From NCBI GenBank assembly GCA_019057815.1, contig JAHLWR010000013.1, positions 32,001 to 96,000 of the forward strand: a DNA stretch of 64,000 bases. Direction: 5' to 3'. The position numbers and the translations under genes were made by a program. Positions within the stretch are counted from its first letter, which is position 1. Each line of letters begins with the position of its first letter. Source of the stretch: Candidatus Heimdallarchaeota archaeon. GTDB lineage: Archaea > Asgardarchaeota > Heimdallarchaeia > Heimdallarchaeales > Heimdallarchaeaceae. The notes under the pieces are model-generated. The model saw only the letters and a list, made by a program, of their open reading frames with translations. It was not told the DNA's origin and made no database searches. Below are positions 15,687-49,464 of the stretch, in pieces.

Positions 15687-15706
15687 TTCGTCTTTCTCTC
15701 AACAGT

Positions 15707-15830
<124 letters not shown>

Positions 15831-16545: not shown

Positions 16546-16609
16546 AATTCTAGGGAATAATTACCCAACTAAGATAAGGAGTATTCTGAAAAGAATTCTA
16601 GAAGATTTA

Positions 16610-17143: not shown

Positions 17144-17371
17144 TTTTTCTTCCTACTGAGTTCTTATCTTGCATTAGTTCTTTATTGTTTATTAGTTTTT
17201 CTTTGTTTTCTGTTCTTTTTATCTTTTTTCCTCTCAGCCTTCTTTTTTACTGAGCTAACCAGTGTATCACTAAAAGTATATTTTTCTGGGAGATTTTGTT
17301 CTCTCTCCCCCTTACCTCAATTCTTGTTCTCTCTCTTCTTTAAACGTGACATGTTTTTCCTTTTTTTTTCT

Positions 17372-20300
17372 TTAGATATAATCTCTAATCACTTTACGGA
17401 AGTTTATACATGCTGCAAACATTCGAGCAAAGTCTATATCTGTGTTATAATATCCTTCTCGCACTTCCTTCATCAAATTATTAATGAAATTTCTGACACT
17501 TTGTCTCAATTCTAACCTTGTTGTTAGTCCTCCTATTTCCATGATTGTTTTGTATGCTGTTATAAGACTATATTTTGCATATAACTTTACATAATCCACA
17601 TGATCTAATGTATATATCCTATCTATTTCGACTTGTGTAGAAATTATATCATAGAGTTCTCTGAATATCTTTTCTTCTTCTTTTATGGATATCAAGTTTC
17701 CATTTTCATCTTTTTTCACTGTTAATGGAACTGGCATTGCTTTTCTGTTTTCAATTATGTCTTTAATGACGCTTAAGACTATTTCTTCAATACTTCCGTC
17801 AACTATTTCTCCCTCGTTTTTCATTTTTGTTATGTAGTTTTCAATAAATGCTTCTGTTATCACATTTACTTCTTGATTCTTACTTTTCTTGTTTCTTGTA
17901 TTTATCATCCATTCAGTATGGAGTTTGTCCCAGATTTTTCTATAATTTGCAATAGATGAAGGTAAAGTGAAAATGAAACGTTCAAATTTATATTTCGTAT
18001 AGTCTACTGGTTTTATTTGTCCGTAATCTGTCATTATTTCAAAAAGTTCTAAAGCGAATTTCATAATTACAGTCAAAATATCATTTAACCCTTGACTTCT
18101 ATCATTTTCCGCTACGATACTCCTTGTAATATAGGTTAAACTATTAATTCTTACTGTTCTTGACTGTTGAAATACAATTTTTAATACATCTACTAAATCA
18201 TTTATTGATATTATCTTATTAATTCGATTATTAGCTCTTTGATAATTGATTTTATTTATATACATACATCCTTCAATTAATGCTTCTTTTAGTTCTGGCA
18301 TTGATTGTAATAATATTCTTCCACCGTCAGGACTCTTTAAATTAACTAGCTCTAAGCCATATTTAATCTGTAGATTTTTGTTCCACAAATTTTGTAAATC
18401 AACTCGATATTCTATACTATTCCTTTTACCTATCAGGGTTTCTAAAGCGTTTATTAGAGATGAAAGAGATAAGTATAAGGCTTTATTACCCTCACTATCT
18501 TCTGTAAATCGTACTGCTAGGAATTTTGTTGCATCTTGTTTCGGTGTCAAGTTTTTTATTGTGCCATCTTCTTTAATTACATCTTTCCCTACATCCAAAT
18601 TTTGTTGAATAAGTTTATTGATAGCTTCTATTTTCGACTGATCTATAAGACTGTTGGATTGATATTTTAATATATCATTAATATATATTATTGTAGTCCC
18701 ATCTGCCGATTCACCTATAGAATCTTTGAAACTAAGTTTATTTATTGCTGTTATAACATTTGTTAAATCATATTTGTAATCTCCTTGGGGACTCGCTCTG
18801 AATGTTACTTCTACGACAAATCCCCTCCCGTTGGAGTTTTGTATTGTATTTTGTATTGAGAAGACATAACTTACTTTTTCTTGTCTTATGTTTTTATAAT
18901 AAAGTACCATATTCTTGATTATTTGAACAGCTGAATGTATAGCAGAACCTACTATTCTGACATTAGTCGTATCTTTGAATCGATTTAAAGTATTACTCTG
19001 ATCTGAATATGCTTGTGAATATTGTTTTTCCATTGGTTTTGTTAACATGTCACTTTCTAGCAGTTCAATACTCGGATTTATCACTGTTCTTTCAATTGCT
19101 CCCATTAACATTTTATATTTTTGTTCGCTGTTTTCCATTGTTTTTATATCGTCTCTTATTGATTCGTATTTACTGTTACATATATCCATATACGTTCTGA
19201 AATCGTCTATTTTTGTCATTGATGTTAATATTTCCAAATAATTGCTAATGTGTGGGGAATAATTTGGATTAGATTTTGGTAACAATGCTGTGTTAAAAAT
19301 TTCTAATTCAAAATTAAGACACACATCACCTAGAGGCTCTGTTGTTTCTCCATTCAATAGCTTGTCCTCTAATCCCACTGCTAGTGTTTTAATAATATTT
19401 CCTTCGTTTGTGTCTTTAAAGTTCCCGTTACTCTTTTCATAAAATACTGACGCTATTGGTGGATTTGTTAATAGATCCTCTTCATTTTTGTATTCATTTT
19501 TGATCTTATCTTTGAGATCTGTAAAGGTATTTGCTACTAATGTAGTTCCATCCTTTTTAATGATGTAGTATCTGTTGTATTTTACTCCGTCTTTGTTAAA
19601 CTGTGCATGAAAAATGGATGAACTTAACCATATTTCTTTGTTGTTCGGATAATGTAAATCTACAATGTTTGATTTAGCTACTGACGATGAAAACATTCCT
19701 GTATATGCTGAGAGTTTTATTGTATCAGCTACTTCTTCTCCTGTGCCTGTGTCAGTAAAAGTTATTGTCTTTTTATATTCTATTGTTCCATCTCCTTTTA
19801 CGATCTTTATTCCTTCAAAGATCTCTATTTCTGCAGTGTGTTTCATCTGTTCCGCTACTTGTTTATGGTTAAAGTACGATAAACTATCTTTCTCTGATTT
19901 TATACTATACACCACTTCTGTTCCATCATCTAGTTTAAAAACTATAAACCCATTTTCATCTACTTGTACACTTGGTTCTTTCTGGAATAAAGCTATTATA
20001 CTTTGTTTCAAAACCCATTTTTTAAGGAGAAGACCTAAATTAATATTTAATTCATCACTTTTTTCTTCGATTTTTCTCTTAAATTCATCAACTGTAAAAC
20101 TCTTTGTAGAATCTGGATATATTCCAAACGTTTTTTGGAAAGATTCTACTATTCTTCTTATTCCTGCTGTTCCTCCTAATGGTATATCAAAAGTGGGAAC
20201 ATAGTCAACACTGTCTATCTTATCCATTACTCCTAATTCTTCGAAAACCTTTCTTGCCTCCTCAGTCATTCTATCTGTAGTAACGATGTTTGTAGCTTTT

Positions 20301-23300
20301 TTATTAAACCTTAGATGATCTTGTCTCACCTTGTATTCATGGACGATTAAACTGTCTACTTGTAAACATTTGTAGGAAAATACACCTTCATTTTCTTTTA
20401 TAATGAAGAAATACGTTTTTCCCTCACTTGTAGCGTCTGCTCCTGTTGGTGATAATCTTGTTTCTGACTGTGATTTGAATAGTTTGTTAAGTATGTTTTC
20501 TGTATTTATTTTACTTTCTCCTATTAAATTATTTTTTACATCTGTTACTTCTCCCGTCACAGGATTGAGTTCTAGTGACAGAAACGGGTTTCCTATTCCA
20601 GCTATCACTTTTCTTTGTCCTTGTTTGATAATATTACGTATTTGACTTGTCATTCTCGCTTTATAATTCTCCTTTGCTTGGGGACAGTTCATAATGAATA
20701 ATGCCCCTATTAAATCGAGAGTGAGTTGTTGGGTTTCTGCCAAAGCCTTATGACCTATTAAGTAGTTTCGTATTTGTGTTAGTATATACATTCCAAAATC
20801 TAGCATAGAGTGCTCAAAGAGTAGTTGATATTGTTCATTACCAATAGAATTTCCGTCTGCAAAGACCGCATCATTATCGATTTCTTTTTCCATCTTTATA
20901 AATTCTTCAAGTAATTGGTATATTGCTGTATCTTTAATTCCCTCAGATATTGCTATCAATTCCTCTAATTCATCACCACAGATTTTCTTATTGATTGACC
21001 CATCATCATTTAAAGCTACACCTATTGTTGCTTTAGCAAGTATTTTCTTAATATTATCTTGGGCATTAATTAGTAACAAAGTCTGGTAAAATCCTGATTC
21101 TTGTATAGTATCAGGATCTATTTTTAGATTGATTTCTTCTGAACCCATTTGAATTTTGAGAAAGGTATCTCCGTTTACCTTTTCCAGTTTCATTAATTTA
21201 GTCAATTTTTCAGCGTTATTTTCACCATCTAAAAATTTAATAAAATTAGTAGCAAATCTATTCACAGCCTTAGCTGGTTTTAACAGGTCGTCTACGGTAA
21301 TCTCAAAGTAATCTCGTATTATTCTGACATCTTCATCTGATAAATTAGTTATTTCACCAGATTTCACTTTATTTAAAAGATCAATTCCGTCTTGTTCTGT
21401 AATAAGGTTGTGGAAATGTGGTCGTAATTGTAACATTTCCATTTTAGCTTTGAGTTCTAATTCTTGTGCTATCCGATTTCTATTATCTTCGTCGAATCTA
21501 AATTCGTCTAGAGTAGGTTGTCTACCGTTTGTTGTTAGTAATAGTTTTTGTACAAGTGATTGTGTAACAGGAGGTTCATAGTGATCTAAATCCTCTAAAG
21601 ATTCAGCTCCACCATAATAAGCTAAATCATTTAATATGTCGGCTGCAGGACCTAAATCATACATCCATTCCATCATCGAATGGAACCAATAATTGTGGGC
21701 AAAAGCTTGTAAGAATTTGTAAGAGCTGGTTCCTTGAGTTTTTTGTGTAATGAGAACAATTCTTTGTGAAGACATCCCTTTAGCTTTAAGTAAGAGAGAC
21801 ATAGCACTCCACATGAGTTGTTCTTTCAAACCCATTACAGTCCCTAAAAGTGTTGTATAGATCGTTTGAGGCCAAAATATTCCCCATTGTAGAAAACTTC
21901 CAACAAGTTTTGTACCAAACTCCAATAACTCTCTAGTACCAAATTTGAAAGTATTACCTAATTCTAAACTACTAAGAGCGTTTTGAGGGCTAAGTTTTTC
22001 GATATATTCTAATAACATTCTGTCAGATTGTGACCATGATGAGGGATTATCAAAATCAATATTTTTACCAACAGCCTCTTTCTTCCAGAACTCCCATTCT
22101 TTTGTGTTTTTGATTTTTTTGCTTAAAAGATCTTGAGCTTGATGTGAGGGTTCATCGATGTCACTTAAGACCATTAATATGTCCCCAGGAATTTGAGAGA
22201 TAGCCAAACCTCGAAAGAAATTGTTAGGATCGAAAATAGCGTCACGAACATCTTGCCATAAAGCTGTAATTGAGAAACGAGCAAGAAACATTTCCATAAT
22301 TGTCATGAAAGTAGATTCTTTAAGACCTGTGCCTAAATTAATTCCAGGGATAACAAAGTTGTCACTCATTCCAAAAAACATTTCATAACTAATTTCATCT
22401 TCGGCACCTATCACTTTGTAAATAACAATATCAGCAGATTGATTCAAAGAGTCGGGGTTTCGGACATCATTAGGGTTGGTAACACCTAATTTCTTTGTGT
22501 TAGGAACATAAACAGTGGAAATATTTGCACCTAGACTATCCGAGATTACAACACTAAAACCTGTTTTTCTTAGAACTTCAGCAATATATTTGACTTGGGC
22601 TGCCTCATTACCTCCAATGGCGACACCTTCAGATTTTGCTATTTCGTTAGCAATAGTCTTTAAATAAACCATAAAGAGGTTCTCACCACCAAAATTATAA
22701 TTTTCGCGGTTATGAGCTCTATAATTTAGATGAAGTAACATATCAGCGTTGGATTGAACATAGGGGTATTCTTCTTTGGAAACTATCCCAGTACAACCTC
22801 CAATATGAAATACCCATTCTAGTAAGAGAATAAAACGGAGTAAGTAATAATATTTTTTCTCTGCCCAATCCGTAAAGTCCCCTTTTAATAATGAACCTAA
22901 AGTGCGCATGAAGTCATTAAAGCTTAATTCTCCTGTCAAAAACGATTTTAATAAGTTAAAGATTGCTGTGATTTTTTGCCAGAAATTAATGAAAGAAGTC
23001 TTAATTCTATTACCCCAACTAATGAGGAAATCTTTAGTTTTACTAAATACTACTTTAGCAGAAACAAGAACGTTTCTAAAGAATTGTAAAATGTATTTTC
23101 CAGGATTGCTAAAGAACTCTACAATTTTAGCTTTGAGTGTATTAAACATTGCACTTAATCCTGAAGCTATCCAGTTTGGTCCTCCTGTCATATCTAAGAT
23201 GACCATCCCAACGAGCATTATTCCCGCAATAATAAATGTTTTCTTGACTATGAAGGTTAGAAAACGACCTTGTATGTTACCGTATAACATGAGTCCGCCT

Positions 23301-26300
23301 GTGAGTAACATTATTGAACCGAGTATAGCATATATGTGGAAGTGTTCGTCCGCGTTTTCTATCCATCTATCTAATAATTCTCCGCTCTTAAGAACATCGA
23401 TAAATTGTTTAAGAGGACAGTAGAAGTTGTATCTGAGATAGTTGATAAAGTTGTTCCAAGATGATTTAACAAACTGTAGAAAAGCACCTTCCCAATCATA
23501 ATTAAGAAGATAATCTTCTAACGTTTGTTGAGCATAGAGTAGACTTTGAGGAGTGACAGTTCTTTCATCTGGAACGACATAATCGTAAGAGAACAGTTTG
23601 AGCAAAACTTGTGAAGTGAAAATAAAGTTACCATCATAATGATTGTTAAATTCAACACTAAGAGAATTAAGGAAATGAGCAATATACATTCCATTATAAA
23701 GCACATGTAATTCTTTAGTAAGAAGGTTAATAGTAATAACTCTATCTTGTAAGGTGATACGAAATTGTGTAGTATTAAAACCTTCTACGTTGTTATCAGT
23801 GATATTAAGTACTAAGTAATCGATTGGACCAGTGTTATAGTGTTCATCAAAGAGATTCCAATATTCTATGTTAATAACATCATTCAATTCTAAAGTTGTA
23901 CCAACAGAAGTGATTTCCATTGTATAACTGTTTTCTTGAACAGCGAGTAGGTCGTGGTTAATACTAGTGTCTCCAGAGGTTGTTGCAGTGTATAATTTAA
24001 TATTTTCTAAATCCTGTGTTTGAAGGTTTTTAACTTCTAGATTGTTAATAGATTGATAATTGCTTTGTGTTGTTGTAGAACATGGTACCATCTCTTGTAG
24101 CTCTACTTTTTGTATTTGGATTTCATGGTATTCATGAGCAGTATTTTGATCGTAAATATATCCAAAGACAGCATAACCTATACCATCCGTTTCATCATAA
24201 TCAGCAACACCTATCCAGACGATTTTAACAGTGTGAATAGCTAAACCATCACAATAAAAATAGGACATGAGATATTTTTTACTAGAGTATGAACGACGGG
24301 CAATATCTACAGGAGCATAAGTGAAAGTGTTTGTTCCTCCCGTGTATTCGTCAAGAGCGAGAAATATTCTTCTTTGTCCTAATTTATCCATAAGATCTAT
24401 GTGATAATCTGTAGGTTGAGCAACAAGTGAGATAAATTCATTGATACCTTCGATAGAAAGGGTGAAGTTGAGAGAGTTGTAAGCATTTAAGTCATTTAAC
24501 ACAAAAACAAACGTGTGGAATCCAGCTGTGTGCCATGTGGTAGAAATATCATCGCCATTGTATGTGTTTGTTAAATCATAAGGTTTCATAGTAAACTGGA
24601 AATTACCATTTGCATCAGCTAACAAAAGTTCATTTCTGAATGATGAAGCATTGAAATCGTTAGGTTGACGAATAAGGAAACCATCAATGTAAATTGCTAA
24701 GAAACTAGAAAGATTGAGGTTGGAATGTAAAATATACTGCAAATCGGGAGTGATTTCGGTTAAATGTCTAATTGTTGTGCTTACAACAATCTGAGTATCG
24801 TTAGAGTAGAAACCTGAATCTATTTGTCCTAATTCTTCTATTGTACCATAATCTGTGATGGAGGAATATCCAAGTGCCATGTCATTGTAAGTGATGTTGT
24901 TAAAAATTACATCGCCTGCTAAAGGAACAGCTTTCTCGAACCATTCTGTCAAGAAGTAAGACATGGAATAGTTACTATAGATTGGGATATATTCTCCGTT
25001 CCACTCTGGAATATCTATATCTCCATTTCTGAAATATTCTCCTGTTTTATCGATATAAATATCGGGATTAGAGACCGTCCATTCAGGAATAAATGTGAAG
25101 TTGTTCGAATCCAATACTGTCTTCATCGAATCTTTGAGTAGGGTAAAGGATTTGTCAAGAACAATGTTAACTTTGAAGAAGGGTTGATAATCGTTGAAAG
25201 AACTATCATTGAAAGTCGTGTGATGGATTCTAAAAATAAAAGTATGATAACCACCGTAAAGATTGTTTAAAGGTATCTTAATTTCCTTTTCTTCATATTT
25301 ATTGGCAACATCATAAGAAAATTGATAAGAAACAGGATTATCTATGCTAAATTCAACATTAGTATTGATAATTAACGTTCCTATTGATTCTTTTTCTGTT
25401 AGTACAGTGAAAGTCATATCGAATGCAAAAACGTCTGCAAAAGTGAGGTTAAGTCTCTCTTTGAGATTAATGTACCCCAAATCATCTGAAAGAATAGGTT
25501 GCCATGTACTATCAGTATTGAGTAATGCACTTGGCGTGTTTTCAGAAGGATTGATAGTTGGAAGTATAGCATATAGATTAAAGCCTTTTAGTTCACTTGA
25601 TCCTGCAGAACAGGAGAGAGTATAATGTGTACCATCAACATAGAAATCTTTTACTTTTACTACACTATAGAAATTACTTATGTAATCATAAGGATTAGTA
25701 ACATCTAGTAAGTTTAAGGATTGTTCTGTCCCTACTTGTGTTGCACTAATGTATGCAATAAGGTTCATAAAATTCAACGAGAAATAATGCCAATCATTGT
25801 CATCTTTAATAGGTACAGCATATTCAATATGATGATAACCAGAATAATTTGTATCGTTTAAATCATAAGGATCGAAATTTGTAGATGTGAAATATAAATT
25901 GGCGAGAATTATCTCTAAATTAAGATTCTTCTCGTAATAGTTATAATCTTCCATATATGAAGCTTGGAGAGGTAAAGTTACTGTAAGTACATCTCCTTCA
26001 GCTATCTTATAATAGAATTCCAGACTATTTACTAGTGTAACATCGACACTTTCAACTGAAGGTATATCTATTAGATCCACTGAATATTTGGCATCAGATG
26101 GAAGAATATCAGGATTTGATGGGCTTGTATAGAGGAAGTTTGTTATCGTTTTGACTTTTCCTAAAGCTATTTTATCGAATTCTACTATATTATCGAAGTG
26201 GAGAGTGTATTTATGTAATCCTACAATGGAAAAGTCATCTAAGATGATAATAACAGGATGATTGGTTGTAAAAGCGTTATAATCTATGCAACGATAACCA

Positions 26301-29300
26301 AGGAATTGATCATCATCTCCATATACAGAAATATTAACAGGACCATAAAGAGGGTTAACAATTAATTGTAAGATTCCTTTACGTGCAAAATAATCCTCTG
26401 AAAAGGTGAAAAGGCCATTATCATCAACATTGTATGACCACCCTTCTAAGTCCTTATACGAAAAGTCCGAATTAATTACACCTATACTAACTTCTAGAAG
26501 GTAAAGAGTACCCGTGGTAGTTGACATAGAAACATGATAAGTATAACCTATGTCTATGTTAATGGTAGTTCCATCATACTCCCACTTTTCTTCTTTTGTA
26601 CCATCGTCTATGAATAATACTTGATAAGAGGAGTTGAAGTTGAAGGTGAGAGTGTAAATGTGTCCTGAATAGATTTGATAGTCAAGTGATTGATTATCAA
26701 AGTATAAAATGTTGTCCCTTATTTCAATATTAAAGAGTTCATTATCATTGTGAGTTGTAGTAAATACAGCATTTGTTGTATCATTGGCTATGAATGTTGT
26801 TGTAAAGGTTCCTAAACTTTCTGTATAATTACCCATAATAAAGGAGTTGCTAATGGAAGAATTGAACATTTTAAGACTATATTCTGTTTCTCCCTTTAAC
26901 CAATAACTGATCTCTCCAGCACCTTGTAATCCTCTTCCATGAGAATAAGTAAGAGGAGAAGTGTAAAATTTCCCGTTTCTAATCTCTTCAATGTAAACCA
27001 TGGTGTTTTCTGTCTGTATGAAAAGTTTGACTTTTGTACCACCATTAAGGTGAGGTTTCATGAAATTATTATGATAAAAGATTTCTTCAACTATAGATTG
27101 TCCCATATCATCTTCACTATATATACTGAAGACTACATCAGAATTTTCTTTTATTTCAATACGAATCTTAAATATCTCATCATTTTTACTAGCTTGATCA
27201 TCAAAGTAAACATGAGCAAACTCTCCTAAAATATCATAACCAAATCCACCTAAATCCCAAGCGAGAGCACATGTATGACCTAGATCGTTCATTACACCAA
27301 TATATACTCTTCGGGTGGTCTGGGTGTCCCAAACATTTTGGAAAAGATTTGATAAGGTAACAAGATAATTAACATCTTTCATATCAATATAATTTGTGCT
27401 AATTTGTCCATCGACCCATAAACCGTCTATTGACATGTAAGTATGACCTGAATCTAATGAAATATAATCACCTGTTTGTTCAGGACTGGTTGGATATATA
27501 ACTAAACTATTATAGAAGAAATTAGTCCTATTAGAATAAAAACCGATATTTGATGCTTGATAACCTTGAACAGTTACACTAGTACTCGTTGCGAACCATC
27601 TTGTAGCCATACCATATTCTCCATCATTAGCTTGTTGCATGGCTCTAACTTCATCCCATTCGCTTATACCAAAAACTCTGTAACATTTGGCATAGATATC
27701 ATATCTTACTTGCCCACTAGGGGTAATAGTTTTAACAATAGTAAGTTTGAGAGGTTGTAGATTCATGTTGTCTACAGAATTAGGTCCAGGATCTATACTA
27801 TTACCTAAATTAACTATTTTTTGCTCGAAAAGGAGTGAATAAGTGTCACTAGCACCTTGATATTGCATTATAACCAAATAAAGAGGATAAGTATAATCGA
27901 TGTCTTCTACAACTTTGAAACCTATGAACAAACCATCATAGAATGAATTAGCTATATTTTCAGTAGGTAATTCCAACATCATTCCTGCAACATCTGTTCG
28001 AATATCTCCTTCGATCCAAGTACTTGGTTGCACAGACATTTCTAGTTCGAAAATAGTATTTTCATATGGGTGTGTGTCGAGGAACGCTGCCCCAGCACCA
28101 CGTAGCATGTTATATGCATCACTATAGGAAAAACCGCCTTCTATCATTTGTAAATAAGTGTCAATATTTTCTTCAGGTGAATCGAAATAATAGACTTCTC
28201 TTTGCATATCAGTATTTTTTTCTATGAAACTTATACCATAAATTGCAGTAAAAGTCTCGTTGAGTTGGAGGATAAATCCATTTATGCTGTTGTTTACCCC
28301 ATAATCTGCTAAGCATTTTTCATCATATATGTTAAAATCAATAGTTTCATTGTCAATTATAACATTAATATAATTTGAAGCAGACAAACTTATTTGCTCA
28401 TATTCTTTAGAGAAACTGAAGGTTTTTTGTAATGTGATTGGACCATGTAAGAGTAAGGCTCCAAATACATTATCAAATGAGGGAGGTTCTAAATAGAATT
28501 GCATAAAGATTTGTAGTAACACAGAACTGTCAATAGTGTTAATAAAACTAATAGGCGAATCTACAAAACCTGAAATCCAATAGTTATTAAACATTAATGG
28601 ATTTGTTAGTTCTAAACCTTGATGTATTGTAATATTATACTCTACACCTTCTTCATTATGGTAATATGCTAACAATTTTCCACCATATCGTGGCATGGCT
28701 GTGTAATTCACTAACCATGAAGGATTGTAGGGTTGTAATCCAACCATTTCTCCCTCGGTTGTTATGTTAGTTTCTATATCTGTTGGGATAACGTCGGGAA
28801 CTACGGTGTTGTTGATAACTTCTCCAAGATATTTTCTAACAATGTCTCCATCAATCGGATTGACAATTCCTTGGTCATCTATTCCTTTACCAAAGGGTTC
28901 TGAACCAGCCCAGAATAAATTATTACCTCTCTCTATCCATTCTTGGAGCAGATATTTTTCAAATGGACGTCCATAATCATCATAGTAATAATATTTCTCT
29001 AGGAGTTTAGTAGGAAGTTCATCAAAAACTACCAAAATGTACTTTTTACTACTAGTTCGTAAGGTGTTTTTCATCCAATTCGGGAAATTTGCATCTTCAG
29101 AATAGTAATAATAAATAGGAACATCAGGATATTTAGCCTTGAAAAAACTTACAGCATTTAGTTCTTGCTGTTCTCGGGTAGGAGTGATGGCAGAACCTAT
29201 AAGAAAAACAATAGCTGTATCAATATTGTTCGCATAACCAATATCTGCATAGCTGTTTTCGTTACTTTCTTCAGTATGTAAATAATTGTACTTAGCTATC

Positions 29301-32300
29301 TTATAGACTTCTATTTTTCTAATAGTGAAGGTTGTAGGTTTATCGAAAGATATTACTAATTGTCCAACTGACTGATCGTTATTGGGGTATAATATCTCAT
29401 ACATGTTTTTATGGATTGTAACAAATCCTTGTATACGGTTAGTAAACGGTGTAATATCGTAATACTGGTTATTAACACCTAAAGATATTGAGTTATTTTC
29501 TTCTATATCGTCTGTCATTATATCAATTGCTACAAACGGATATTCTGTTACATTTACGGGGTTGAAATTGATGTATAGTCTTCCTTCATCATAACTAGTA
29601 TGGTTTACTCTTAAGATACCGTTTTCAAAACTGACATTTGTGTTAAAGGCTATTACACGTTTATCATCAAAAACATACATACTAAAGTAATATTCTTTAG
29701 TAAAAACATTTTCTACCCAACGTTTAGTAGTTGAATATTTATCAAAGTCTTCAGCCCATCCAAAGTCTGATGTAGAATACTCATAATCTTCTTCAGCTTC
29801 GGAATGACTAGTAATATCTGTTGCTTGTAAGGATAATAATTGTATTGGAATACGTCTATCAATCATTATTATAACTTCATACAGTCCTTCATATCCTATT
29901 ATAACGAGAGAATGACTATGGAAATCAAAATCATTATCTAAGAAAATAATTGAACCTACATATTGTGCGTCGTCAAGATTAAATATTCCATCGATTTCTA
30001 ATAAGAAAATGTGGAAAGTAAGTCTTTCTGTTACGTTCTCTCCAACATAATAATTTGCGAGAGCAGTTAAATATAATCGTGTTTCGTTTTTTAGAAACAT
30101 GTCATATGATGCTATAAAGTTTAGATCTTCAGGTGTTTCTCTTGTAATTATTGAACTGTTATCATATGAACTACTGCTACCCAAATCTAGATATTTGAGG
30201 CTAATAATGTTGGGGAAGATTTCATTAGTATAAATTGCAGATTGTGTGATTCTTAAAGCGAATACATCAGAATTATGGCTTACGGGAATCTCATTACTGA
30301 GTACAATAAGAGGGGCAATAGGGATATAATAATCTCCACGATATAATCCCAACAAGAGTTCAGAATCTTTTCTTCCAAATCTGAACCATATATCAGCATC
30401 GATAATACTATCATCAACATATTGAATGACTAAATACTCACCTATATAGACATTAATGGTTAGAACATCAGTAGTAATTATTTCAACCTTAAACGCTATG
30501 TTGTAGGCGTTATCTAAGAATTCAAAAGTTAGATATCCTATACAATTATAACTAATTGTTGTGTTAATATGAGCGGTCATTAAAAAGTCGTCTACAAGAA
30601 CCATATCTTTCCAGAATGTTCTTCCTTTTGGTACATAGGTAAACTGTGAGAAATCAAAGAGGGTTTTTAATCCTTCATTTAGTACATAAGGTATTTCATT
30701 AGTTGCTACATTTCCATAAGCATAAGTTGCAAAATCATCAATTGTTGCAAAATCAGTACTATAATCAGGGGCTACAAAAGATGTGATAGCATTGAAAGGA
30801 TGAGGATTATCAATAGGTAAGCTTTTTGTACAAACATATATTGCATTAATACCCATTGTGTTCGTAACCGTGTTATTTCCCAGTGAAAGTTCTTTGATTT
30901 TTATCCTATCAATATAAAGCTGTTCAATCTCATTGGTATATGTAAAAATTGTCTCAAGTTGGTTGGTTCCAGTTATGTCAGATAAAACTGACAATGTATT
31001 ACCTTCTCTCATTATCCTGAAGACATTGTTATTTATATCATTAGAATGTGAAAAACTATCTACAAGAACACGATTGATGAATAATGAGATAGTGACATGT
31101 CCTTGTTCTTCTCCTGTGAATCTAAGTTCAAAGAGATCAAGATACTGCAAATGATCTTCTAAAATAATTGAAATTATTCCATAATTTTTATCTAACAAGT
31201 AAGTAAGTCTTGTATCTAAATAAAAATCTGTTTCAAAGGTATAATCATATGCATAGACGTTTCCGTACCAATCTGTGCCATCTTGGAAAGGACGTTCAAA
31301 GTTAGTAGTAAGGTAAGTTGCATTTTGTAGGATGGTTTGAGAAGTATAGTAATTTATTCCTTTTATTTCCCAGTTTGAAAGATCAGAAAAGTGGTCATTT
31401 AAGATTACATATTCACTTTCCCACGGCGCATCGTATTGAGTGACAAGAGCATCTTTTAGGGTTATATCTCCTAACATCATTAATAGTGGTTCTGGGGACG
31501 CAAAATCAAAAGTAGTAATAATGTCAATGTTTTCAATTCTATAAGGTTCGATGTTTAAACTTAGATGAGGTACTAAAATGTCTACACTGTTAATATTACT
31601 ATAGAAAGTGAGTGTATTCCCTTCTTGTATCAAACGTAAGGAACTATATTGCAAAACTGTTTTTTGAATAGTAATAATGTCTGTTCCACTAGTAGAGTGT
31701 AAGCTTATTATTATTGAACTTCCAGTAAATTCTAGATGTAAATAACTATTCATATTATTAAGCGAAATTGTCAGACTTCCAATCTTATCGATTGATTCAA
31801 TATTTACACGGAAATCAATCATAAAATCATAATCGGAAGAAACATTTCTAGAAAACGTTATCGCAATATTTTGTGTAAGAGTGTTTAAAGGAGTTATTTT
31901 CATGTAATTGTTCTCATTTGTTATCCCTATATCAGATACATCACAGCCATCATATGATGTTAACCAGTTTCCTGCAATATATGAATTGTACATATTTTCT
32001 TCTAATACTGTATTTACAGCTGATTCCAATGCATTATATCCCGCACTATAATAATAACTGTCAACAAATAATGTATCTAGATAATAATTTGGATAATAAT
32101 GATCATAAAATATCTCTTGTGATATAGCGATTGTATCAATCAAGAAATTTGTACTGAAAGTATGTTCCAGAATAGTTGTACTTCTATCCAAGTCAGTTAT
32201 CTGTATTTCATTTTCGTTTTTCGTAATTCGTATTTTCTTGAAAATAGATGTTGTTATTGTTTCAGTATATAGGGTATCCTCATTTATAACGATTAGAAAT

Positions 32301-35300
32301 TCTGTGGCATTGTCTGTATCAGATAAATCTCGAAATATTATAGTGATTTTCTCATCTGTATTTCCAAACGAGATTTGTTGGATACCTATTGAAGTAGGAT
32401 CTTCACTTCCTAAAATTATAGCTATAAAATCAATAATAATATTTGAATCTAATTGTTGTTCATGACTTAAATATGTTCCATGGTATCCAGCTCCACTTTC
32501 TGATATCCAAAACAGATCTTTCCTCTTCAGTACATCATCTGCAAATTGAGTAGCGAGCACGTTATTTGATAAATCTACAACATTATTAGCATTAGCAGTT
32601 ACATTCCAAGCGTCAAGTGTATTGAATGTTTCACTAATTAATCTGTGGCGGAGCGTTGTATATCCAGCTTTAAATTCACATGATGCTGAGCCTAAAATAA
32701 CGCGGAATATATCATATGTTCCAGCTCTGATATTGATATTCTTAATTTGTTGAAGTAGAGCAGGGGTATCTTTTGTAATTGTAAAAACAGTTGTAGAATC
32801 TACTTGGAAAGTTACAGTAGTACTTTCCTTCTTTATTGTAAAATAGTGACTATTGCCATCTGCAAGAGCAATTTGTTCCTCATGACCGTCTATTAAAATA
32901 TAATAGGTATCAAATTTTCTTCCAACAACCAAGAAAGGCTCATTGAAATTGTTTGTTAGTTCTATTTGAACAAAATCTTCGGCGGATATTGTTGTAAAAT
33001 CAACATGTATTTGGAATGTGATATCTCCTGCTATGTTGACTTCTTTATTTAATACCATTCCATATTGTTCAGTTCCCATGTTTTCAATCAGTTTTATCTC
33101 TTGTAGTGTGCCATCGAGTTCATTGTATTCTACTTGTGTAAGATTCTCATCACCAAATCTTTCAGCTGTGAAGATATCAGATATTATTCTTGTTTGCCAT
33201 AATGATTGCCATTGCTCTGTCTGTACATCCAGTTTTGGATAAAATATTTCATTTGTTGAATCAGTATAATCATAAGGTGATTCATATCCTGAAGGTTCGT
33301 CACCATTATATACTAACATATCGTTATCGATGTAAGATGCGGTTCCTCTTCTATAATAGTCCCATGCAGGTCTGCTTTGTCCAAAAGGTGTAGCTCCTGC
33401 AAAACCTAACTCATCGATATATATAGGCCAATTGAAAGTTTCTACTATTTCTATCGAGAGTATAGATGTAAACCTAATTGTTTCAGGGTTGATGGGACAG
33501 ATTACTCTCTCAAATCCTTTACCATGCTCAATAACTGCTTTTGCAACAAGTGTTCTAGCTATTCCGTATCTATCTATATCATCTATATAGAAAGCAAGTG
33601 TAACATCCTCTGGTCCTTGATTCATCGCCCGTACGTGTAATCTATCAGCTGCGTTAGGCTCTCTGCTTTCTACGATTAATGTAGTGGTCTTGACGATACT
33701 ATTGTATCCCATAAAACCTACGTATCTTATTCCAAAATATTCATCATGGATAGAGATATATTCAGAATTTGATATGTAAACAGTAATACCTCCATTATCA
33801 TAAATAATCTCTACATTGTATTCTTCGTTCAAGAGGATGGTTTCTTTTCTTTCATAAATAGAAGTATAACCACTCGGATATAGTCTCACCAATCTTATTT
33901 TGTCTTCTGTGGTAGGATCTTTAATAAATTGTAAAGCATAACCACTATCGAAGATATTATCATAGTTAAATAATATTGAGAAGATTGATTCTGTTGTGGG
34001 ATCATTTTGAACAAAGATGAAAGAAGTTGAAAGTCTGTAAGAGTCGTTCATTTCCAAAGGTAAATAGGCTTTTGTTTTGAAATCAGTATGTGTAGTATTA
34101 AGCATTAATCCCTCTTCTGATGTGCATTGTGTATAGTTTTCATCATATACCCAGTTATCAAGATCGCAATCTGTGAAGTCTATATCATAAATGGGGATAC
34201 TGTTTTCAAGCAAATAGGATATATATCCTCCATCTTTGTTGTTATCGACAAGTAGAACGCGGTTATTAACAACTCTTATTCCACTTTGATCTGAAGTGAC
34301 ATCAGCTAATGTAGTTATTTTTGTGTCATAAAGAGATTTTGAATATTCTTCAGCATTAATTATTTCTCCTGGGGAATATCGATAATCATTTATTGTTTCA
34401 TCAATATACAAATAATTTAGTATTAATCCCGTATCTATTCCTGCTGTATTGTTGTACCAAGTTATTGCTAGTTCCAAACGGATATAATGCCCAGCCCACC
34501 ACGATAAATCAATAGTATCCATTGTTGGATAGTAGTTTAAATATTCAAATTCATCTACAATTTTGATGTTTTTATAGGGGTTGTCAGCATCGTAAATTGT
34601 CATCTCAATGTCATAGTAAACATATGGAGCATTCAATAGAGACGAAAACAGATAGTTTAGTGTAGGTTTATATACGGAAGGTATTACCATATGAAAATCG
34701 AAATAGCGTTTGCCATAAGGAGCAACAGAAGGTACGTTAAAGATTCTTGCATTATGCTCTATTCCTTCTGCTGTTACTATACCATTTTCGCAAATGTAAT
34801 CTTTTGCAGAAGGATATAGATCTTCATTAAAAGCTTTATCATTTGTTAATAGGTCGTATTTGTGAAATTGGGGAGTATATATACTTACTTCTTTAATGTT
34901 TAAATTATAACCATTCTCGTCATTATCAATGATTTTGATGGTAAGATATTGAGTATTTTTGAAGATATAATAATCTATTCTAGCACCCCTTAGATGAGTG
35001 AAACTTTCTTTTGTGAAAAATATTTTGGAAGTATTGGTATCAGATATAATCAATTTATCTATTGGATCAGCACCATTTGTAGGTGTTTCTACGGTAAGTA
35101 GCAGCTCGCTTTCTCCATTCCAACTGCTAATATCAACAACTTTTGTAGCATAACCGTTATCTGGTATATGTAGGTTATCATACCATGTTTCAAGGTTATC
35201 GCCTTTCCAACCCAAAATAGATTCGTGAAAATATGAGTCTTTCACAAAATAATATCCATTATCAAATGTATTTGGAGTTGTAATTAATATTCCTGATACA

Positions 35301-35404
35301 TTTGAAAACGCAACCAAAAAAATTAACACTGCTGCTAACGTTACTGTTACTAATCTTTTTGCTTTATAATTATAAGTGTCCATAATATTTTCCTTTCTTT
35401 TCAT
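17372..35404 (-). CDS. Giant 6010-aa membrane protein (signal peptide, ~4000-aa beta-rich ectodomain, hydrophobic core, ~1900-aa charged C-terminal region)
   Basis: Uninterrupted 18-kb ORF with an N-terminal hydrophobic helix, repeated LamG/ConA-like beta-sandwich-style segments, and TM-like helices at about 23140-23340. Confidence 0.85.
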   Translation of the reverse strand: MKRKENIMDTYNYKAKRLVTVTLAAVLIFLVAFSNVSGILITTPNTFDNGYYFVKDSYFHESILGWKGDNLETWYDNLHIPDNGYATKVVDISSWNGESELLLTVETPTNGADPIDKLIISDTNTSKIFFTKESFTHLRGARIDYYIFKNTQYLTIKIIDNDENGYNLNIKEVSIYTPQFHKYDLLTNDKAFNEDLYPSAKDYICENGIVTAEGIEHNARIFNVPSVAPYGKRYFDFHMVIPSVYKPTLNYLFSSLLNAPYVYYDIEMTIYDADNPYKNIKIVDEFEYLNYYPTMDTIDLSWWAGHYIRLELAITWYNNTAGIDTGLILNYLYIDETINDYRYSPGEIINAEEYSKSLYDTKITTLADVTSDQSGIRVVNNRVLLVDNNKDGGYISYLLENSIPIYDIDFTDCDLDNWVYDENYTQCTSEEGLMLNTTHTDFKTKAYLPLEMNDSYRLSTSFIFVQNDPTTESIFSILFNYDNIFDSGYALQFIKDPTTEDKIRLVRLYPSGYTSIYERKETILLNEEYNVEIIYDNGGITVYISNSEYISIHDEYFGIRYVGFMGYNSIVKTTTLIVESREPNAADRLHVRAMNQGPEDVTLAFYIDDIDRYGIARTLVAKAVIEHGKGFERVICPINPETIRFTSILSIEIVETFNWPIYIDELGFAGATPFGQSRPAWDYYRRGTASYIDNDMLVYNGDEPSGYESPYDYTDSTNEIFYPKLDVQTEQWQSLWQTRIISDIFTAERFGDENLTQVEYNELDGTLQEIKLIENMGTEQYGMVLNKEVNIAGDITFQIHVDFTTISAEDFVQIELTNNFNEPFLVVGRKFDTYYILIDGHEEQIALADGNSHYFTIKKESTTVTFQVDSTTVFTITKDTPALLQQIKNINIRAGTYDIFRVILGSASCEFKAGYTTLRHRLISETFNTLDAWNVTANANNVVDLSNNVLATQFADDVLKRKDLFWISESGAGYHGTYLSHEQQLDSNIIIDFIAIILGSEDPTSIGIQQISFGNTDEKITIIFRDLSDTDNATEFLIVINEDTLYTETITTSIFKKIRITKNENEIQITDLDRSTTILEHTFSTNFLIDTIAISQEIFYDHYYPNYYLDTLFVDSYYYSAGYNALESAVNTVLEENMYNSYIAGNWLTSYDGCDVSDIGITNENNYMKITPLNTLTQNIAITFSRNVSSDYDFMIDFRVNIESIDKIGSLTISLNNMNSYLHLEFTGSSIIISLHSTSGTDIITIQKTVLQYSSLRLIQEGNTLTFYSNINSVDILVPHLSLNIEPYRIENIDIITTFDFASPEPLLMMLGDITLKDALVTQYDAPWESEYVILNDHFSDLSNWEIKGINYYTSQTILQNATYLTTNFERPFQDGTDWYGNVYAYDYTFETDFYLDTRLTYLLDKNYGIISIILEDHLQYLDLFELRFTGEEQGHVTISLFINRVLVDSFSHSNDINNNVFRIMREGNTLSVLSDITGTNQLETIFTYTNEIEQLYIDRIKIKELSLGNNTVTNTMGINAIYVCTKSLPIDNPHPFNAITSFVAPDYSTDFATIDDFATYAYGNVATNEIPYVLNEGLKTLFDFSQFTYVPKGRTFWKDMVLVDDFLMTAHINTTISYNCIGYLTFEFLDNAYNIAFKVEIITTDVLTINVYIGEYLVIQYVDDSIIDADIWFRFGRKDSELLLGLYRGDYYIPIAPLIVLSNEIPVSHNSDVFALRITQSAIYTNEIFPNIISLKYLDLGSSSSYDNSSIITRETPEDLNFIASYDMFLKNETRLYLTALANYYVGENVTERLTFHIFLLEIDGIFNLDDAQYVGSIIFLDNDFDFHSHSLVIIGYEGLYEVIIMIDRRIPIQLLSLQATDITSHSEAEEDYEYSTSDFGWAEDFDKYSTTKRWVENVFTKEYYFSMYVFDDKRVIAFNTNVSFENGILRVNHTSYDEGRLYINFNPVNVTEYPFVAIDIMTDDIEENNSISLGVNNQYYDITPFTNRIQGFVTIHKNMYEILYPNNDQSVGQLVISFDKPTTFTIRKIEVYKIAKYNYLHTEESNENSYADIGYANNIDTAIVFLIGSAITPTREQQELNAVSFFKAKYPDVPIYYYYSEDANFPNWMKNTLRTSSKKYILVVFDELPTKLLEKYYYYDDYGRPFEKYLLQEWIERGNNLFWAGSEPFGKGIDDQGIVNPIDGDIVRKYLGEVINNTVVPDVIPTDIETNITTEGEMVGLQPYNPSWLVNYTAMPRYGGKLLAYYHNEEGVEYNITIHQGLELTNPLMFNNYWISGFVDSPISFINTIDSSVLLQIFMQFYLEPPSFDNVFGALLLHGPITLQKTFSFSKEYEQISLSASNYINVIIDNETIDFNIYDEKCLADYGVNNSINGFILQLNETFTAIYGISFIEKNTDMQREVYYFDSPEENIDTYLQMIEGGFSYSDAYNMLRGAGAAFLDTHPYENTIFELEMSVQPSTWIEGDIRTDVAGMMLELPTENIANSFYDGLFIGFKVVEDIDYTYPLYLVIMQYQGASDTYSLLFEQKIVNLGNSIDPGPNSVDNMNLQPLKLTIVKTITPSGQVRYDIYAKCYRVFGISEWDEVRAMQQANDGEYGMATRWFATSTSVTVQGYQASNIGFYSNRTNFFYNSLVIYPTSPEQTGDYISLDSGHTYMSIDGLWVDGQISTNYIDMKDVNYLVTLSNLFQNVWDTQTTRRVYIGVMNDLGHTCALAWDLGGFGYDILGEFAHVYFDDQASKNDEIFKIRIEIKENSDVVFSIYSEDDMGQSIVEEIFYHNNFMKPHLNGGTKVKLFIQTENTMVYIEEIRNGKFYTSPLTYSHGRGLQGAGEISYWLKGETEYSLKMFNSSISNSFIMGNYTESLGTFTTTFIANDTTNAVFTTTHNDNELFNIEIRDNILYFDNQSLDYQIYSGHIYTLTFNFNSSYQVLFIDDGTKEEKWEYDGTTINIDIGYTYHVSMSTTTGTLYLLEVSIGVINSDFSYKDLEGWSYNVDDNGLFTFSEDYFARKGILQLIVNPLYGPVNISVYGDDDQFLGYRCIDYNAFTTNHPVIIILDDFSIVGLHKYTLHFDNIVEFDKIALGKVKTITNFLYTSPSNPDILPSDAKYSVDLIDIPSVESVDVTLVNSLEFYYKIAEGDVLTVTLPLQASYMEDYNYYEKNLNLEIILANLYFTSTNFDPYDLNDTNYSGYHHIEYAVPIKDDNDWHYFSLNFMNLIAYISATQVGTEQSLNLLDVTNPYDYISNFYSVVKVKDFYVDGTHYTLSCSAGSSELKGFNLYAILPTINPSENTPSALLNTDSTWQPILSDDLGYINLKERLNLTFADVFAFDMTFTVLTEKESIGTLIINTNVEFSIDNPVSYQFSYDVANKYEEKEIKIPLNNLYGGYHTFIFRIHHTTFNDSSFNDYQPFFKVNIVLDKSFTLLKDSMKTVLDSNNFTFIPEWTVSNPDIYIDKTGEYFRNGDIDIPEWNGEYIPIYSNYSMSYFLTEWFEKAVPLAGDVIFNNITYNDMALGYSSITDYGTIEELGQIDSGFYSNDTQIVVSTTIRHLTEITPDLQYILHSNLNLSSFLAIYIDGFLIRQPNDFNASSFRNELLLADANGNFQFTMKPYDLTNTYNGDDISTTWHTAGFHTFVFVLNDLNAYNSLNFTLSIEGINEFISLVAQPTDYHIDLMDKLGQRRIFLALDEYTGGTNTFTYAPVDIARRSYSSKKYLMSYFYCDGLAIHTVKIVWIGVADYDETDGIGYAVFGYIYDQNTAHEYHEIQIQKVELQEMVPCSTTTQSNYQSINNLEVKNLQTQDLENIKLYTATTSGDTSINHDLLAVQENSYTMEITSVGTTLELNDVINIEYWNLFDEHYNTGPIDYLVLNITDNNVEGFNTTQFRITLQDRVITINLLTKELHVLYNGMYIAHFLNSLSVEFNNHYDGNFIFTSQVLLKLFSYDYVVPDERTVTPQSLLYAQQTLEDYLLNYDWEGAFLQFVKSSWNNFINYLRYNFYCPLKQFIDVLKSGELLDRWIENADEHFHIYAILGSIMLLTGGLMLYGNIQGRFLTFIVKKTFIIAGIMLVGMVILDMTGGPNWIASGLSAMFNTLKAKIVEFFSNPGKYILQFFRNVLVSAKVVFSKTKDFLISWGNRIKTSFINFWQKITAIFNLLKSFLTGELSFNDFMRTLGSLLKGDFTDWAEKKYYYLLRFILLLEWVFHIGGCTGIVSKEEYPYVQSNADMLLHLNYRAHNRENYNFGGENLFMVYLKTIANEIAKSEGVAIGGNEAAQVKYIAEVLRKTGFSVVISDSLGANISTVYVPNTKKLGVTNPNDVRNPDSLNQSADIVIYKVIGAEDEISYEMFFGMSDNFVIPGINLGTGLKESTFMTIMEMFLARFSITALWQDVRDAIFDPNNFFRGLAISQIPGDILMVLSDIDEPSHQAQDLLSKKIKNTKEWEFWKKEAVGKNIDFDNPSSWSQSDRMLLEYIEKLSPQNALSSLELGNTFKFGTRELLEFGTKLVGSFLQWGIFWPQTIYTTLLGTVMGLKEQLMWSAMSLLLKAKGMSSQRIVLITQKTQGTSSYKFLQAFAHNYWFHSMMEWMYDLGPAADILNDLAYYGGAESLEDLDHYEPPVTQSLVQKLLLTTNGRQPTLDEFRFDEDNRNRIAQELELKAKMEMLQLRPHFHNLITEQDGIDLLNKVKSGEITNLSDEDVRIIRDYFEITVDDLLKPAKAVNRFATNFIKFLDGENNAEKLTKLMKLEKVNGDTFLKIQMGSEEINLKIDPDTIQESGFYQTLLLINAQDNIKKILAKATIGVALNDDGSINKKICGDELEELIAISEGIKDTAIYQLLEEFIKMEKEIDNDAVFADGNSIGNEQYQLLFEHSMLDFGMYILTQIRNYLIGHKALAETQQLTLDLIGALFIMNCPQAKENYKARMTSQIRNIIKQGQRKVIAGIGNPFLSLELNPVTGEVTDVKNNLIGESKINTENILNKLFKSQSETRLSPTGADATSEGKTYFFIIKENEGVFSYKCLQVDSLIVHEYKVRQDHLRFNKKATNIVTTDRMTEEARKVFEELGVMDKIDSVDYVPTFDIPLGGTAGIRRIVESFQKTFGIYPDSTKSFTVDEFKRKIEEKSDELNINLGLLLKKWVLKQSIIALFQKEPSVQVDENGFIVFKLDDGTEVVYSIKSEKDSLSYFNHKQVAEQMKHTAEIEIFEGIKIVKGDGTIEYKKTITFTDTGTGEEVADTIKLSAYTGMFSSSVAKSNIVDLHYPNNKEIWLSSSIFHAQFNKDGVKYNRYYIIKKDGTTLVANTFTDLKDKIKNEYKNEEDLLTNPPIASVFYEKSNGNFKDTNEGNIIKTLAVGLEDKLLNGETTEPLGDVCLNFELEIFNTALLPKSNPNYSPHISNYLEILTSMTKIDDFRTYMDICNSKYESIRDDIKTMENSEQKYKMLMGAIERTVINPSIELLESDMLTKPMEKQYSQAYSDQSNTLNRFKDTTNVRIVGSAIHSAVQIIKNMVLYYKNIRQEKVSYVFSIQNTIQNSNGRGFVVEVTFRASPQGDYKYDLTNVITAINKLSFKDSIGESADGTTIIYINDILKYQSNSLIDQSKIEAINKLIQQNLDVGKDVIKEDGTIKNLTPKQDATKFLAVRFTEDSEGNKALYLSLSSLINALETLIGKRNSIEYRVDLQNLWNKNLQIKYGLELVNLKSPDGGRILLQSMPELKEALIEGCMYINKINYQRANNRINKIISINDLVDVLKIVFQQSRTVRINSLTYITRSIVAENDRSQGLNDILTVIMKFALELFEIMTDYGQIKPVDYTKYKFERFIFTLPSSIANYRKIWDKLHTEWMINTRNKKSKNQEVNVITEAFIENYITKMKNEGEIVDGSIEEIVLSVIKDIIENRKAMPVPLTVKKDENGNLISIKEEEKIFRELYDIISTQVEIDRIYTLDHVDYVKLYAKYSLITAYKTIMEIGGLTTRLELRQSVRNFINNLMKEVREGYYNTDIDFARMFAACINFRKVIRDYI

Positions 35405-49257: not shown

Positions 49258-49464
49258 TATTATCCCCTTCAAGTTAAACTGAAGAATTGTAGCAACATGT
49301 CTTAAGGCATTGAGGAAAAAGAAGAGTAGAAAAAATTAGTTTCCGTCACTCTATCTTCCTCTCTACTCTTCCTCACATGGTAAGTTCCGATGCGAGCATG
49401 ATTAACTGTATTTGAAGACTCAATCATCATTTTTATCAGCATAACAATGTAAAGCTCAATATAG

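Follow-up and report, generated by a model that had tools for sequence, protein, structure and literature searches.

Aloposons are characterized by tandem genes for proteins of 3-6 thousand amino acids (kaa), Otus and Ephialtes, and by integration at tRNA sites downstream of these giants (Wu et al., 2022; PMC8813620). Four consecutive conserved genes, including one for a MinD/ParA-like ATPase, form their front end upstream of the giants, and HeimV2 carries an IbrA-like gene (PMC8813620). The elements and both giants were published in 2022 without a function and with their structure in outline only (PMC8813620). Here we analyze a window of 64,000 nucleotides (nt) from a Candidatus Heimdallarchaeota archaeon, corresponding to positions 32001-96000 of contig C39 (source genome G000: 3.74 Mb in 48 contigs, 95% complete). 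In this window, five co-directional open reading frames (ORFs), all on the minus strand, form a 32-kb operon (17372-49272) that ends in two giant genes, and we refer to this operon as the C39 cassette. Judging from its sequence, the locus is very probably a chromosomal, vertically inherited relative of the aloposon cargo of Heimdallarchaeum, with a different and genus-specific front end and with a mosaic second giant.

The operon encodes a MinD/ParA-family ATPase (P0001), a small protein (P0002), an S8 subtilase (P0003), giant 1 and giant 2 (also P0005; Table 1). This order of MinD/ParA, hypothetical, S8, 3224-aa and 6010-aa genes (aa, amino acids) with tight or overlapping junctions had been proposed in the initial annotation and was recovered exactly. 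More specifically, giant 1 and giant 2 share an ATGA overlap at 35401-35404, and the S8 and giant 1 genes overlap by 19 nt at 45057-45075, or by ATGA if the second ATG is the start. Comparisons were made with the sister species Heimdallarchaeota archaeon 8H_bin2 (G001; flank proteins 91-98% identical), the single-contig genome of Ca. Heimdallarchaeum endolithica PR6 (G007; CP084167.1), the complete sister genome of the latter (G004, presumed only to be Ca. H. aukensis) and a relative with contig CAZHRF010000041.1 (G005). C7, C8, C9, C16, C38 and C39 denote contigs of the source genome.

The protease and both giants are homologous to an insertion in H. endolithica

An S8 gene (943 aa), a 3170-aa gene and a 6099-aa gene occupy positions 2,406,758-2,437,404 of the H. 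endolithica genome. P0003, giant 1 and giant 2 are 39%, 31% and 34.5% identical to the members of this trio over nearly their full lengths (about 2000 aa in the case of giant 1, which is also 29% identical to its C16 paralog). The trio lies inside a 39.5-kb segment (~2,397,998-2,437,480); G004 lacks this segment at the corresponding site, which is collinear and 86% identical. About 48 bp of G004 match both junctions, and an imperfect direct repeat of ~45 bp flanks the element. Its front end comprises genes of 91 aa and 378 aa and a 271-aa ATPase gene. The same front end recurs at a second locus of this genome together with an S8-like gene, giants of 4475 aa and 5326 aa and an IbrA-like gene (PAPS_reduct and DUF3440); because of the adjoining IbrA-like gene we take this second locus to be HeimV2. 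The clean insertion with flanking repeats and the HeimV2-like second locus together identify the 2.398-2.437 Mb locus, by sequence, as an aloposon-type insertion. No tRNA or other Rfam RNA was found at the junction of the element and no integrase domain inside it. Two repeated sequences were also noted at this locus: an element of ~110 bp resembling a miniature inverted-repeat transposable element (G007:2396279-2396389; at least 12 copies in G004 at 91-97% identity) and one of ~300 bp just upstream of the S8 gene (~9 copies, 71-73%).

The C39 cassette shares with aloposons a tandem pair of genes in the 3-6 kaa range (3224 aa and 6010 aa) behind a MinD/ParA-family ATPase gene, homology of the S8 protein and of both giants, and, with the reference element, an end ~75 bp past the stop codon of the last giant (77 bp at the right junction in H. 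endolithica, 74 bp here). The initial annotation had called the locus Aloposon-like; homology to the proteins of the H. endolithica element bears this out for the protease and both giants, not for the ATPase, and the other front-end genes of aloposons have no counterpart here. Unlike in aloposons, three genes rather than four precede the giants, a core-MinD paralog and a genus-specific 202-aa protein replace the four-gene front end, and homologs of the 91-aa and 378-aa head genes, the PD-(D/E)XK nuclease, the DUF4145 gene and the Mrr-like gene of the reference element are missing. The cassette is also without a tRNA target: its junction falls in the upstream region of a Ras gene, and the tRNA-His is 1.8 kb away in a block that G001, G007 and G004 also conserve. 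No end motif downstream of the giants' stop codons was found in common among seven cassettes. Further differences are vertical inheritance of the cassette within the genus and a repeat-bounded unit of at least 69 kb with a 276-bp duplication, compared with an aloposon element of ~40 kb with repeats of ~45 bp.

The source genome contains four paralogous cassettes, on C39, C16, C7 and C38. The C16 cassette consists of S8, 3157-aa and 5978-aa genes with a truncated P0002 homolog and without MinD, and its type is 88-95% conserved between the source species and G001. The C7 cassette reads MinD, hypothetical, S8, 1551, 2566 and 5235 aa, and the C38 cassette MinD, hypothetical, 2071 and 4628 aa. Beyond this genome the distribution is narrow. 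Homologs of giant 2 occur in 5 of the 41 relatives compared; a set of 185,579 species representatives yielded, apart from the source genome itself, three genomes with four loci between them, and a set of 1.84 billion protein representatives yielded 6 matches. A word-indexed search of 5.8 billion proteins returned solely the query itself.

The front-end ATPase is a paralog of a core MinD lineage

P0001 matches Pfam AAA_31 (E 5.6e-26), CbiA and ParA above the Pfam cut-offs and has a deviant Walker A motif, QKGGPGKTT, at residues 39-47 with the signature Lys present. It is 85% and 81% identical to the heads of the C7 and C38 cassettes and 60% identical to a stand-alone MinD on C8, versus 24-28% to the aloposon ATPase of H. 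endolithica. The C8-type MinD is conserved family-wide and occupies a syntenic, giant-free region in both complete Heimdallarchaeum genomes. By these identities P0001 is a paralog of the core MinD lineage and not an aloposon ATPase. Its closest MinD relatives in the complete genomes were considered as possible heads of giant genes and ruled out, as none of them heads giants. The aloposon ATPase of H. endolithica itself reads EGGTGKT instead of KGGxGKT, with Glu in place of the signature Lys.

At the DNA level, the MinD-hypothetical head (C39:79865-81184) is 86.7% identical to that of C7 and 82% to that of C38 (blastn), and the giants are unrelated. Similarity to these heads ends at window position 49184, 88 nt inside the P0001 ORF, and the first ~29 residues of P0001 are unique; as read from the alignment, this position marks a recombination breakpoint in the 5' end of MinD. 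A small divergent gene is present at the head boundary in C7, C38, C16 and both H. endolithica elements and absent in the C39 cassette. The second head protein, P0002, is 202 aa long, aromatic-rich and without a transmembrane (TM) helix, and has no match in Pfam, NCBIfam, PADLOC, PDB sequences or the ESM Atlas. Its homologs occur in the C7, C38 and C16 (truncated) cassettes and in G001 and none was found in other genera, a distribution that makes it, on present sequences, a genus-restricted head component. In addition, C7:49682-57066 and C38:178201-185600 share a 7.4-kb segment at 90.6% identity, with genes for a hypothetical protein, MinD, a 108-aa divergent protein, a CarboxypepD_reg protein (687/691 aa) and a NosD/beta-helix protein (629 aa). 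It points to a recent event, either segmental duplication or gene conversion, ahead of giants that are themselves unrelated.

From general knowledge, P0001 resembles MinD/ParA positioning ATPases (e.g., BcsQ of cellulose synthase) in its deviant Walker A motif and in being encoded by the first gene of an operon for a large membrane or surface complex. Its Pfam and NCBIfam matches to BcsQ and MinD are weak, all of them under the curated cut-offs of those families. In contrast to the described positioning systems, no MinE or ParB partner was identified for P0001, and its closest relative is a stand-alone core gene without an assigned role.

The cassette is vertically inherited and sits at a derived position

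The G001 contig C114 holds an ortholog of giant 2. Over residues 2297-4635, the synonymous divergence (dS) between the two is 0.178 and the ratio of nonsynonymous to synonymous divergence (dN/dS) is 0.15, and three flanking core genes compared with G001 give a dS of 0.184 and a dN/dS of 0.12. Because these rates equal those of core genes, we infer that the C39 cassette is vertically inherited, old in the genus, and was present in the common ancestor with G001.

Its position is another matter. The G001 block Memo-Ras-DUF2122-tRNA-His-5S-cytidylyltransferase-Ras is collinear with the window, and past the Ras gene it continues into a 337-aa gene, a NosD-like gene and a 460/673-aa block without a cassette. 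In G007 and G004, the tRNA-His block is joined to a 650/464-aa block and the cassette site is likewise empty, so that the empty site anticipated in the initial annotation is found in all three relatives. The ancestral neighbor genes, as in G001, sit on contig C9 of the source genome. The left junction (Table 1) is backed by a three-way alignment, and G001:C4:15262-16100 corresponds to C39:49298-48459 at 91.4% (blastn).

Next to the left junction lies one copy of a 276-bp direct repeat (Table 1). The second copy (C9:842-1115) is in direct orientation and 91.7% identical; it is a truncated Ras fragment that abuts the ancestral neighbors, begins abruptly at codon ~45 and carries source-genome-specific substitutions common to the C39 copy. 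The ORF that closes C39 and the one that opens C9 complement each other as the two halves of a single leucine-rich-repeat (LRR) gene, on the same strand and in the same repeat array. Given these complementary halves and the shared repeats, C39 and C9 probably adjoin, and the two 276-bp repeats appear to enclose an accessory island of at least 69 kb. The island contains the cassette, two Lrp-like genes with a structured spacer, GcvH, a 1051-aa NosD/beta-helix gene, DndB/C/D/E-like genes, a PLD/ResIII helicase, a DarT and macro-domain pair, SMC-type ATPases and the LRR gene; its Dnd/DarT part has no counterpart in G001. By comparison with G001, then, either the cassette has moved or the island has assembled around it since the common ancestor, in the lineage of the source genome, by a mechanism that, from what is preserved, left a long duplication and not an attachment (att) site.

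Searches for a mobility apparatus gave negative results in agreement with the initial annotation. No recombinase domain was found among the flank genes, and the tyrosine recombinase family PF00589 has no match in the whole 95%-complete genome, compared with matches in 14 of 14 control genomes (a XerA-type recombinase may be too divergent for detection, or unassembled). The 3' end of the tRNA-His (15494-15583), the sole tRNA of the window, has no second copy in the window with up to 3 mismatches allowed, and around the cassette only low-identity, AT-rich matches to att-like direct or inverted repeats were found. The initial annotation had spoken of a domesticated or differently mobilized copy. 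The former agrees with vertical inheritance at core dS and less with the derived site that the cassette occupies at one end of the putative island (at least 69 kb); the latter agrees with a derived site that is empty in relatives and with the 276-bp duplication, and less with core-rate dS and vertical inheritance. Likewise, it had staked the aloposon link on two outcomes: the giants do prove homologous to aloposon genes and the site is not universally syntenic, and the cassette is nevertheless inherited like the core genome.

The C-terminal module of giant 2 is probably exchanged and is depleted in glycosylation sites

Giant 2 is 88-100% identical to its G001 ortholog up to residue ~4635, where identity falls abruptly to 50-70% with indels. 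Residues 4636-5881 show a dS of 0.55, a dN of 0.26 and a dN/dS of 0.48. A matching switch occurs at the homologous residue (~4625) of the C16-type paralog giant, with a dS of 0.12 and dN/dS of 0.14 before it and 0.45 and 0.35 after it. As dS itself is three-fold higher past ~4635, this pattern points to exchange of the module with a diverged allele and not to relaxed constraint alone. By the same measure, the conserved 4,635-aa part, comprising ectodomain, TM cluster and juxtamembrane domain, evolves like core genes. A free-standing 1203-aa ORF on the G005 contig CAZHRF010000041.1 shows homology to the giants in their variable C-terminal module alone. Across genera, the extreme C-terminus of giant 2 is weakly conserved. 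Two small ORFs of H. endolithica (126 and 141 aa) resemble the last ~100 residues of the 6-kaa giants.

We then set the number of N-glycosylation sequons (N-x-S/T) against expectation. Residues 4636-6010 of P0005 contain 3 sequons where 12.8 ± 3.1 are expected (z = -3.1), a roughly four-fold depletion, and the last 1400 aa of the C16, G007a and G005 giants contain 1, 1 and 2 (expected 12.3, 11.8 and 10.7, respectively). The P0005 ectodomain is close to expectation (46 observed, 47.9 expected), as are cytoplasmic control proteins (21 observed, 18.2 expected). Proteome-wide, the ratio of observed to expected sequons is 0.96 for non-TM proteins, and only 1.4% of 1375-aa null windows reach a ratio of 0.25 or below. 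Since cytoplasmic proteins show no sequon selection, the depletion suggests that the C-terminal module meets the glycosylation machinery, i.e., is exported, but must remain sugar-free. It also fits a topology with a two-helix hairpin.

Architecture of the giants and of the subtilase

Neither giant has a match in Pfam, NCBIfam, PADLOC, PDB sequences or the ESM Atlas. In giant 2, residues 1-4020 are 30-58% identical to the G005, G007a and C16 homologs. Two TM helices (4022-4044 and 4049-4072) come next, and residues 4188-4209 may form a third. The domain that extends to ~4635 is the best conserved in the family (mean column identity 55%), and residues 4331-4415 within it are the only part common to the otherwise unrelated C7, C38 and HeimV2 giants. 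The region after ~4635 is charge-balanced and largely helical, with a conserved alpha/beta block at ~5035-5325. An AlphaFold2 (AF2) model of residues 4000-4700 from a 6-sequence alignment was unusable (predicted local distance difference test, pLDDT, of 43), and a model of residues 4636-5835 (pLDDT 55.6) was confident only at ~5035-5325. Fold searches with the C-terminal module (Foldseek against PDB, VIA-align wide and Atlas) returned generic helical bundles (Z <8) or TM-scores below 0.3.

Giant 1 consists of an N-terminal signal/TM segment, ~15 tandem repeat units, irregular domains, a C-terminal TM anchor and a basic tail. The units are ~105 aa long (99-127), each starting with D-x3-P-x-hydrophobic (18 motif matches versus 4.8 in shuffled sequences); they escaped a BLAST self-comparison but were revealed by the motif-periodicity count. 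The stalk of Ig repeats proposed in the initial annotation is thus upheld as a periodicity of ~15 units, with the Ig fold itself putative.

P0003 (Peptidase_S8, E 1.9e-35) has an N-terminal signal/TM segment, the triad D144/H186/S462, a Thr-rich linker, a C-terminal TM helix and a basic tail. The Asp-His-Ser triad (DTG, GHG and GTS motifs) is shared by P0003 and four homologs and kept in 5 of 6 cassette-linked copies; it is lost, in its Ser motif, only in the HeimV2 copy. This copy (G007:2236914-2239031, minus strand) is without GTS and AAGN motifs and without the C-terminal anchor and is probably a pseudo-protease. The best NCBIfam match of P0003 is mycosin (TIGR03921), at 61 bits against a family cut-off of 279 bits. 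Like mycosin in type VII secretion, P0003 is an S8 protease anchored by a C-terminal TM helix, and its gene belongs to the operon of a large, here putative, envelope machine; unlike mycosin, it scores far under the family cut-off and is accompanied by no other component of type VII secretion.

Proposed function and alternative explanations

Taken as a whole, identity, evolution and mechanism are best explained jointly by an aloposon-related chromosomal operon that builds a cell-surface apparatus, an account that we regard as somewhat favored. For the apparatus as such our confidence is low and the proposal tentative. Giant 1 would be a C-terminally anchored stalk of tandem repeat domains, and giant 2 would be held in the membrane by a helical hairpin, which would leave the C-terminal module also exported and unglycosylated. 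The co-anchored subtilase may process one or both giants, and on the cytoplasmic face the MinD-type ATPase may serve to assemble the complex or to position it. Contact with other cells or viruses, for recognition or delivery, could fall to the diversifying C-terminal module. A proteolytically matured cell-contact apparatus had been inferred in the initial annotation; the swapped, sequon-poor module would fit a contact or delivery role but does not prove it. Several points weigh against this account. The two clear TM helices of giant 2 place the C-terminal module outside, but the possible third (4188-4209) would place it inside, as would a K/R-rich stretch after the second helix. Expression, processing and localization are predictions from sequence, neither giant has a Pfam, PDB or Atlas relative, and the AF2 models are poor. 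The reference locus in H. endolithica is identified as aloposon-type by its sequence features and not by the numbering of Wu et al. (2022). Finally, the C39-C9 join comes from the LRR halves and the repeats without spanning sequence, so the island size is provisional and the flanking status of the 276-bp repeat depends on that join.

Three other explanations were weighed. The cassette might be a complete and currently active, self-mobile aloposon whose recombinase and ends went unrecognized. This would account for the empty site in G001, G007 and G004, for a junction whose distance from the giant's stop codon (74 bp) is like that of the reference element (77 bp) and for four cassettes per genome, and the reference element is likewise without an integrase domain. 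We consider it very improbable: the aloposon front-end genes (91-aa, 378-aa, 271-aa ATPase, PD-(D/E)XK nuclease, DUF4145 and Mrr-like) are absent, the flanking repeat encloses at least 69 kb and not the 32-kb cassette, similarity to the sister heads breaks inside the MinD gene, the dS of the cassette equals that of core genes, and neither short att-like repeats nor an end motif common to the cassettes was found. The opposite possibility is an ordinary lineage-specific surface-protein operon that has no link to mobile elements and owes its position to generic rearrangement in a variable region. Inheritance at the core rate, a GC content of 32.4% (genome 32.8%), the lack of mobility genes and the 88-95% conservation of the C16-type paralog between both species would all be expected of such an operon. 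It is nonetheless unlikely in view of the homologous trio inside a clean 39.5-kb insertion in H. endolithica and the related trio inside HeimV2, of the very patchy distribution given above, and of the place of the cassette at the end of a defense-gene-rich island.

The remaining explanation concerns function and goes further than the apparatus outlined above. By analogy with CdiA/Rhs (general knowledge), giant 2 could belong to a contact-dependent polymorphic effector system whose C-terminal module is cleaved, possibly by the S8 protease, and delivered into neighbors. Both feature an exported protein of huge size in which a conserved body gives way sharply to an exchangeable C-terminal module, and both have orphan modules elsewhere: the conserved/variable boundary lies at a homologous residue in two paralogs with raised dS, as allele exchange would leave it, the G005 ORF is an orphan module, and sequon avoidance in 4 of 4 homologs is expected of an exported, sugar-free piece. 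Unlike CdiA/Rhs, however, giant 2 has no candidate immunity gene beside it, the next gene being a core Ras gene, and no toxin domain was recognized by Pfam, NCBIfam, PADLOC, PDB sequence or fold search. The variable piece, ~1,400 aa with a conserved block, differs from typical short toxin tips and shows only weak conservation between genera at its very C-terminus. The host is an archaeon and lacks an outer membrane, and no sequence or fold similarity to CdiA/Rhs was detected. We regard this analogue as rather improbable. More speculative still is a general reading in which twin-giant cassettes are an archaeal cell-cell recognition or delivery system, with a subtilase-released unglycosylated module acting on or in neighbor cells or viruses and with alleles recombined from orphan copies.

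Features of the window and neighboring genes

Table 1. Genes, parts of giant 2 and boundary features of the C39 cassette (window coordinates).
Feature	Position	Strand	Description
P0001, MinD/ParA-family ATPase, 315 aa	48325-49272	-	Pfam AAA_31/CbiA/ParA
P0002, 202 aa	47751-48359	-	no Pfam match
P0003, S8 subtilase, 883 aa	45057-47708	-	Pfam Peptidase_S8
Giant 1, 3224 aa	35401-45075	-	no Pfam match
Giant 2 (P0005), 6010 aa	17372-35404	-	no Pfam match
Giant 2, residues 1-4020	23345-35404	-	signal/TM 23-41 and acidic ectodomain rich in aromatic and N/T/S residues
Giant 2, residues ~4021-4635	21500-23344	-	TM cluster and most conserved domain of the family
Giant 2, residues 4636-6010 and stop	17372-21499	-	putatively swappable, fast-diverging, sequon-depleted C-terminal module
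Left synteny junction	17298-17299		homology to G001:C4 stops, 74 bp past giant 2 stop
Left copy of 276-bp direct repeat	17009-17284	+	Ras codons 1-45 and 141 nt upstream

The flanks of the cassette encode Memo, two Ras-family GTPases, a DUF2122 nuclease-like protein, a cytidylyltransferase, Lrp-type regulators and GcvH. The downstream neighbor of giant 2, Rab-like in the initial annotation, is a conserved Ras-family GTPase gene 228 nt away that is common to G001, G007 and G004. The block of tRNA-His, permuted 5S, cytidylyltransferase and Ras (window 15494-17143) is inverted in this genus relative to both Heimdallarchaeum genomes, so that the side turned to the variable junction carries the tRNA in Heimdallarchaeum and the Ras gene in this genus. 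A 405-aa gene of the right flank was dropped as a synteny anchor, being a member of a multi-copy family.

In tetranucleotide composition, the cassette (distance 0.176) is the most extreme of all 32-kb windows in the genome (median 0.069). Foreign origin was rejected as the cause, given the typical GC; the unusual amino-acid make-up of the giants probably lies behind this extremity.

Two further features of the island region were noted. A defense cluster with a GC content of 28.8% and no DNA counterpart in the sister species (C39:95210-110000; window 63210-64000 onward) encodes PLD/ResIII/Helicase_C, DndC-like (PAPS_reduct), DndD-like (AAA_23/SMC), DndE and DndB-like proteins, DarT and a macro-domain protein, a further SMC-type ATPase and a UDG-family protein. 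The 1051-aa NosD/right-handed beta-helix protein (window 55553-58708, minus strand) belongs to a very large paralog family, with dozens of 65-85% identical DNA matches on contigs of G000 and G001 and members near 3 of the 4 giant cassettes.

Implications

The locus separates a conserved core, an anchored subtilase and two giants, from a mobility-associated front end, and indicates that an aloposon-type core can live as an ordinary chromosomal operon. It also offers two measurable handles on function, namely the exchange boundary at ~4635 and the replicated avoidance of N-glycosylation sites in the module beyond it. If the proposed function is true, these cassettes would make up a novel type of contact-dependent system, for recognition or delivery, in the archaea most closely related to eukaryotes, and it would be carried by mobile elements in Heimdallarchaeum and by the chromosome in this genus.

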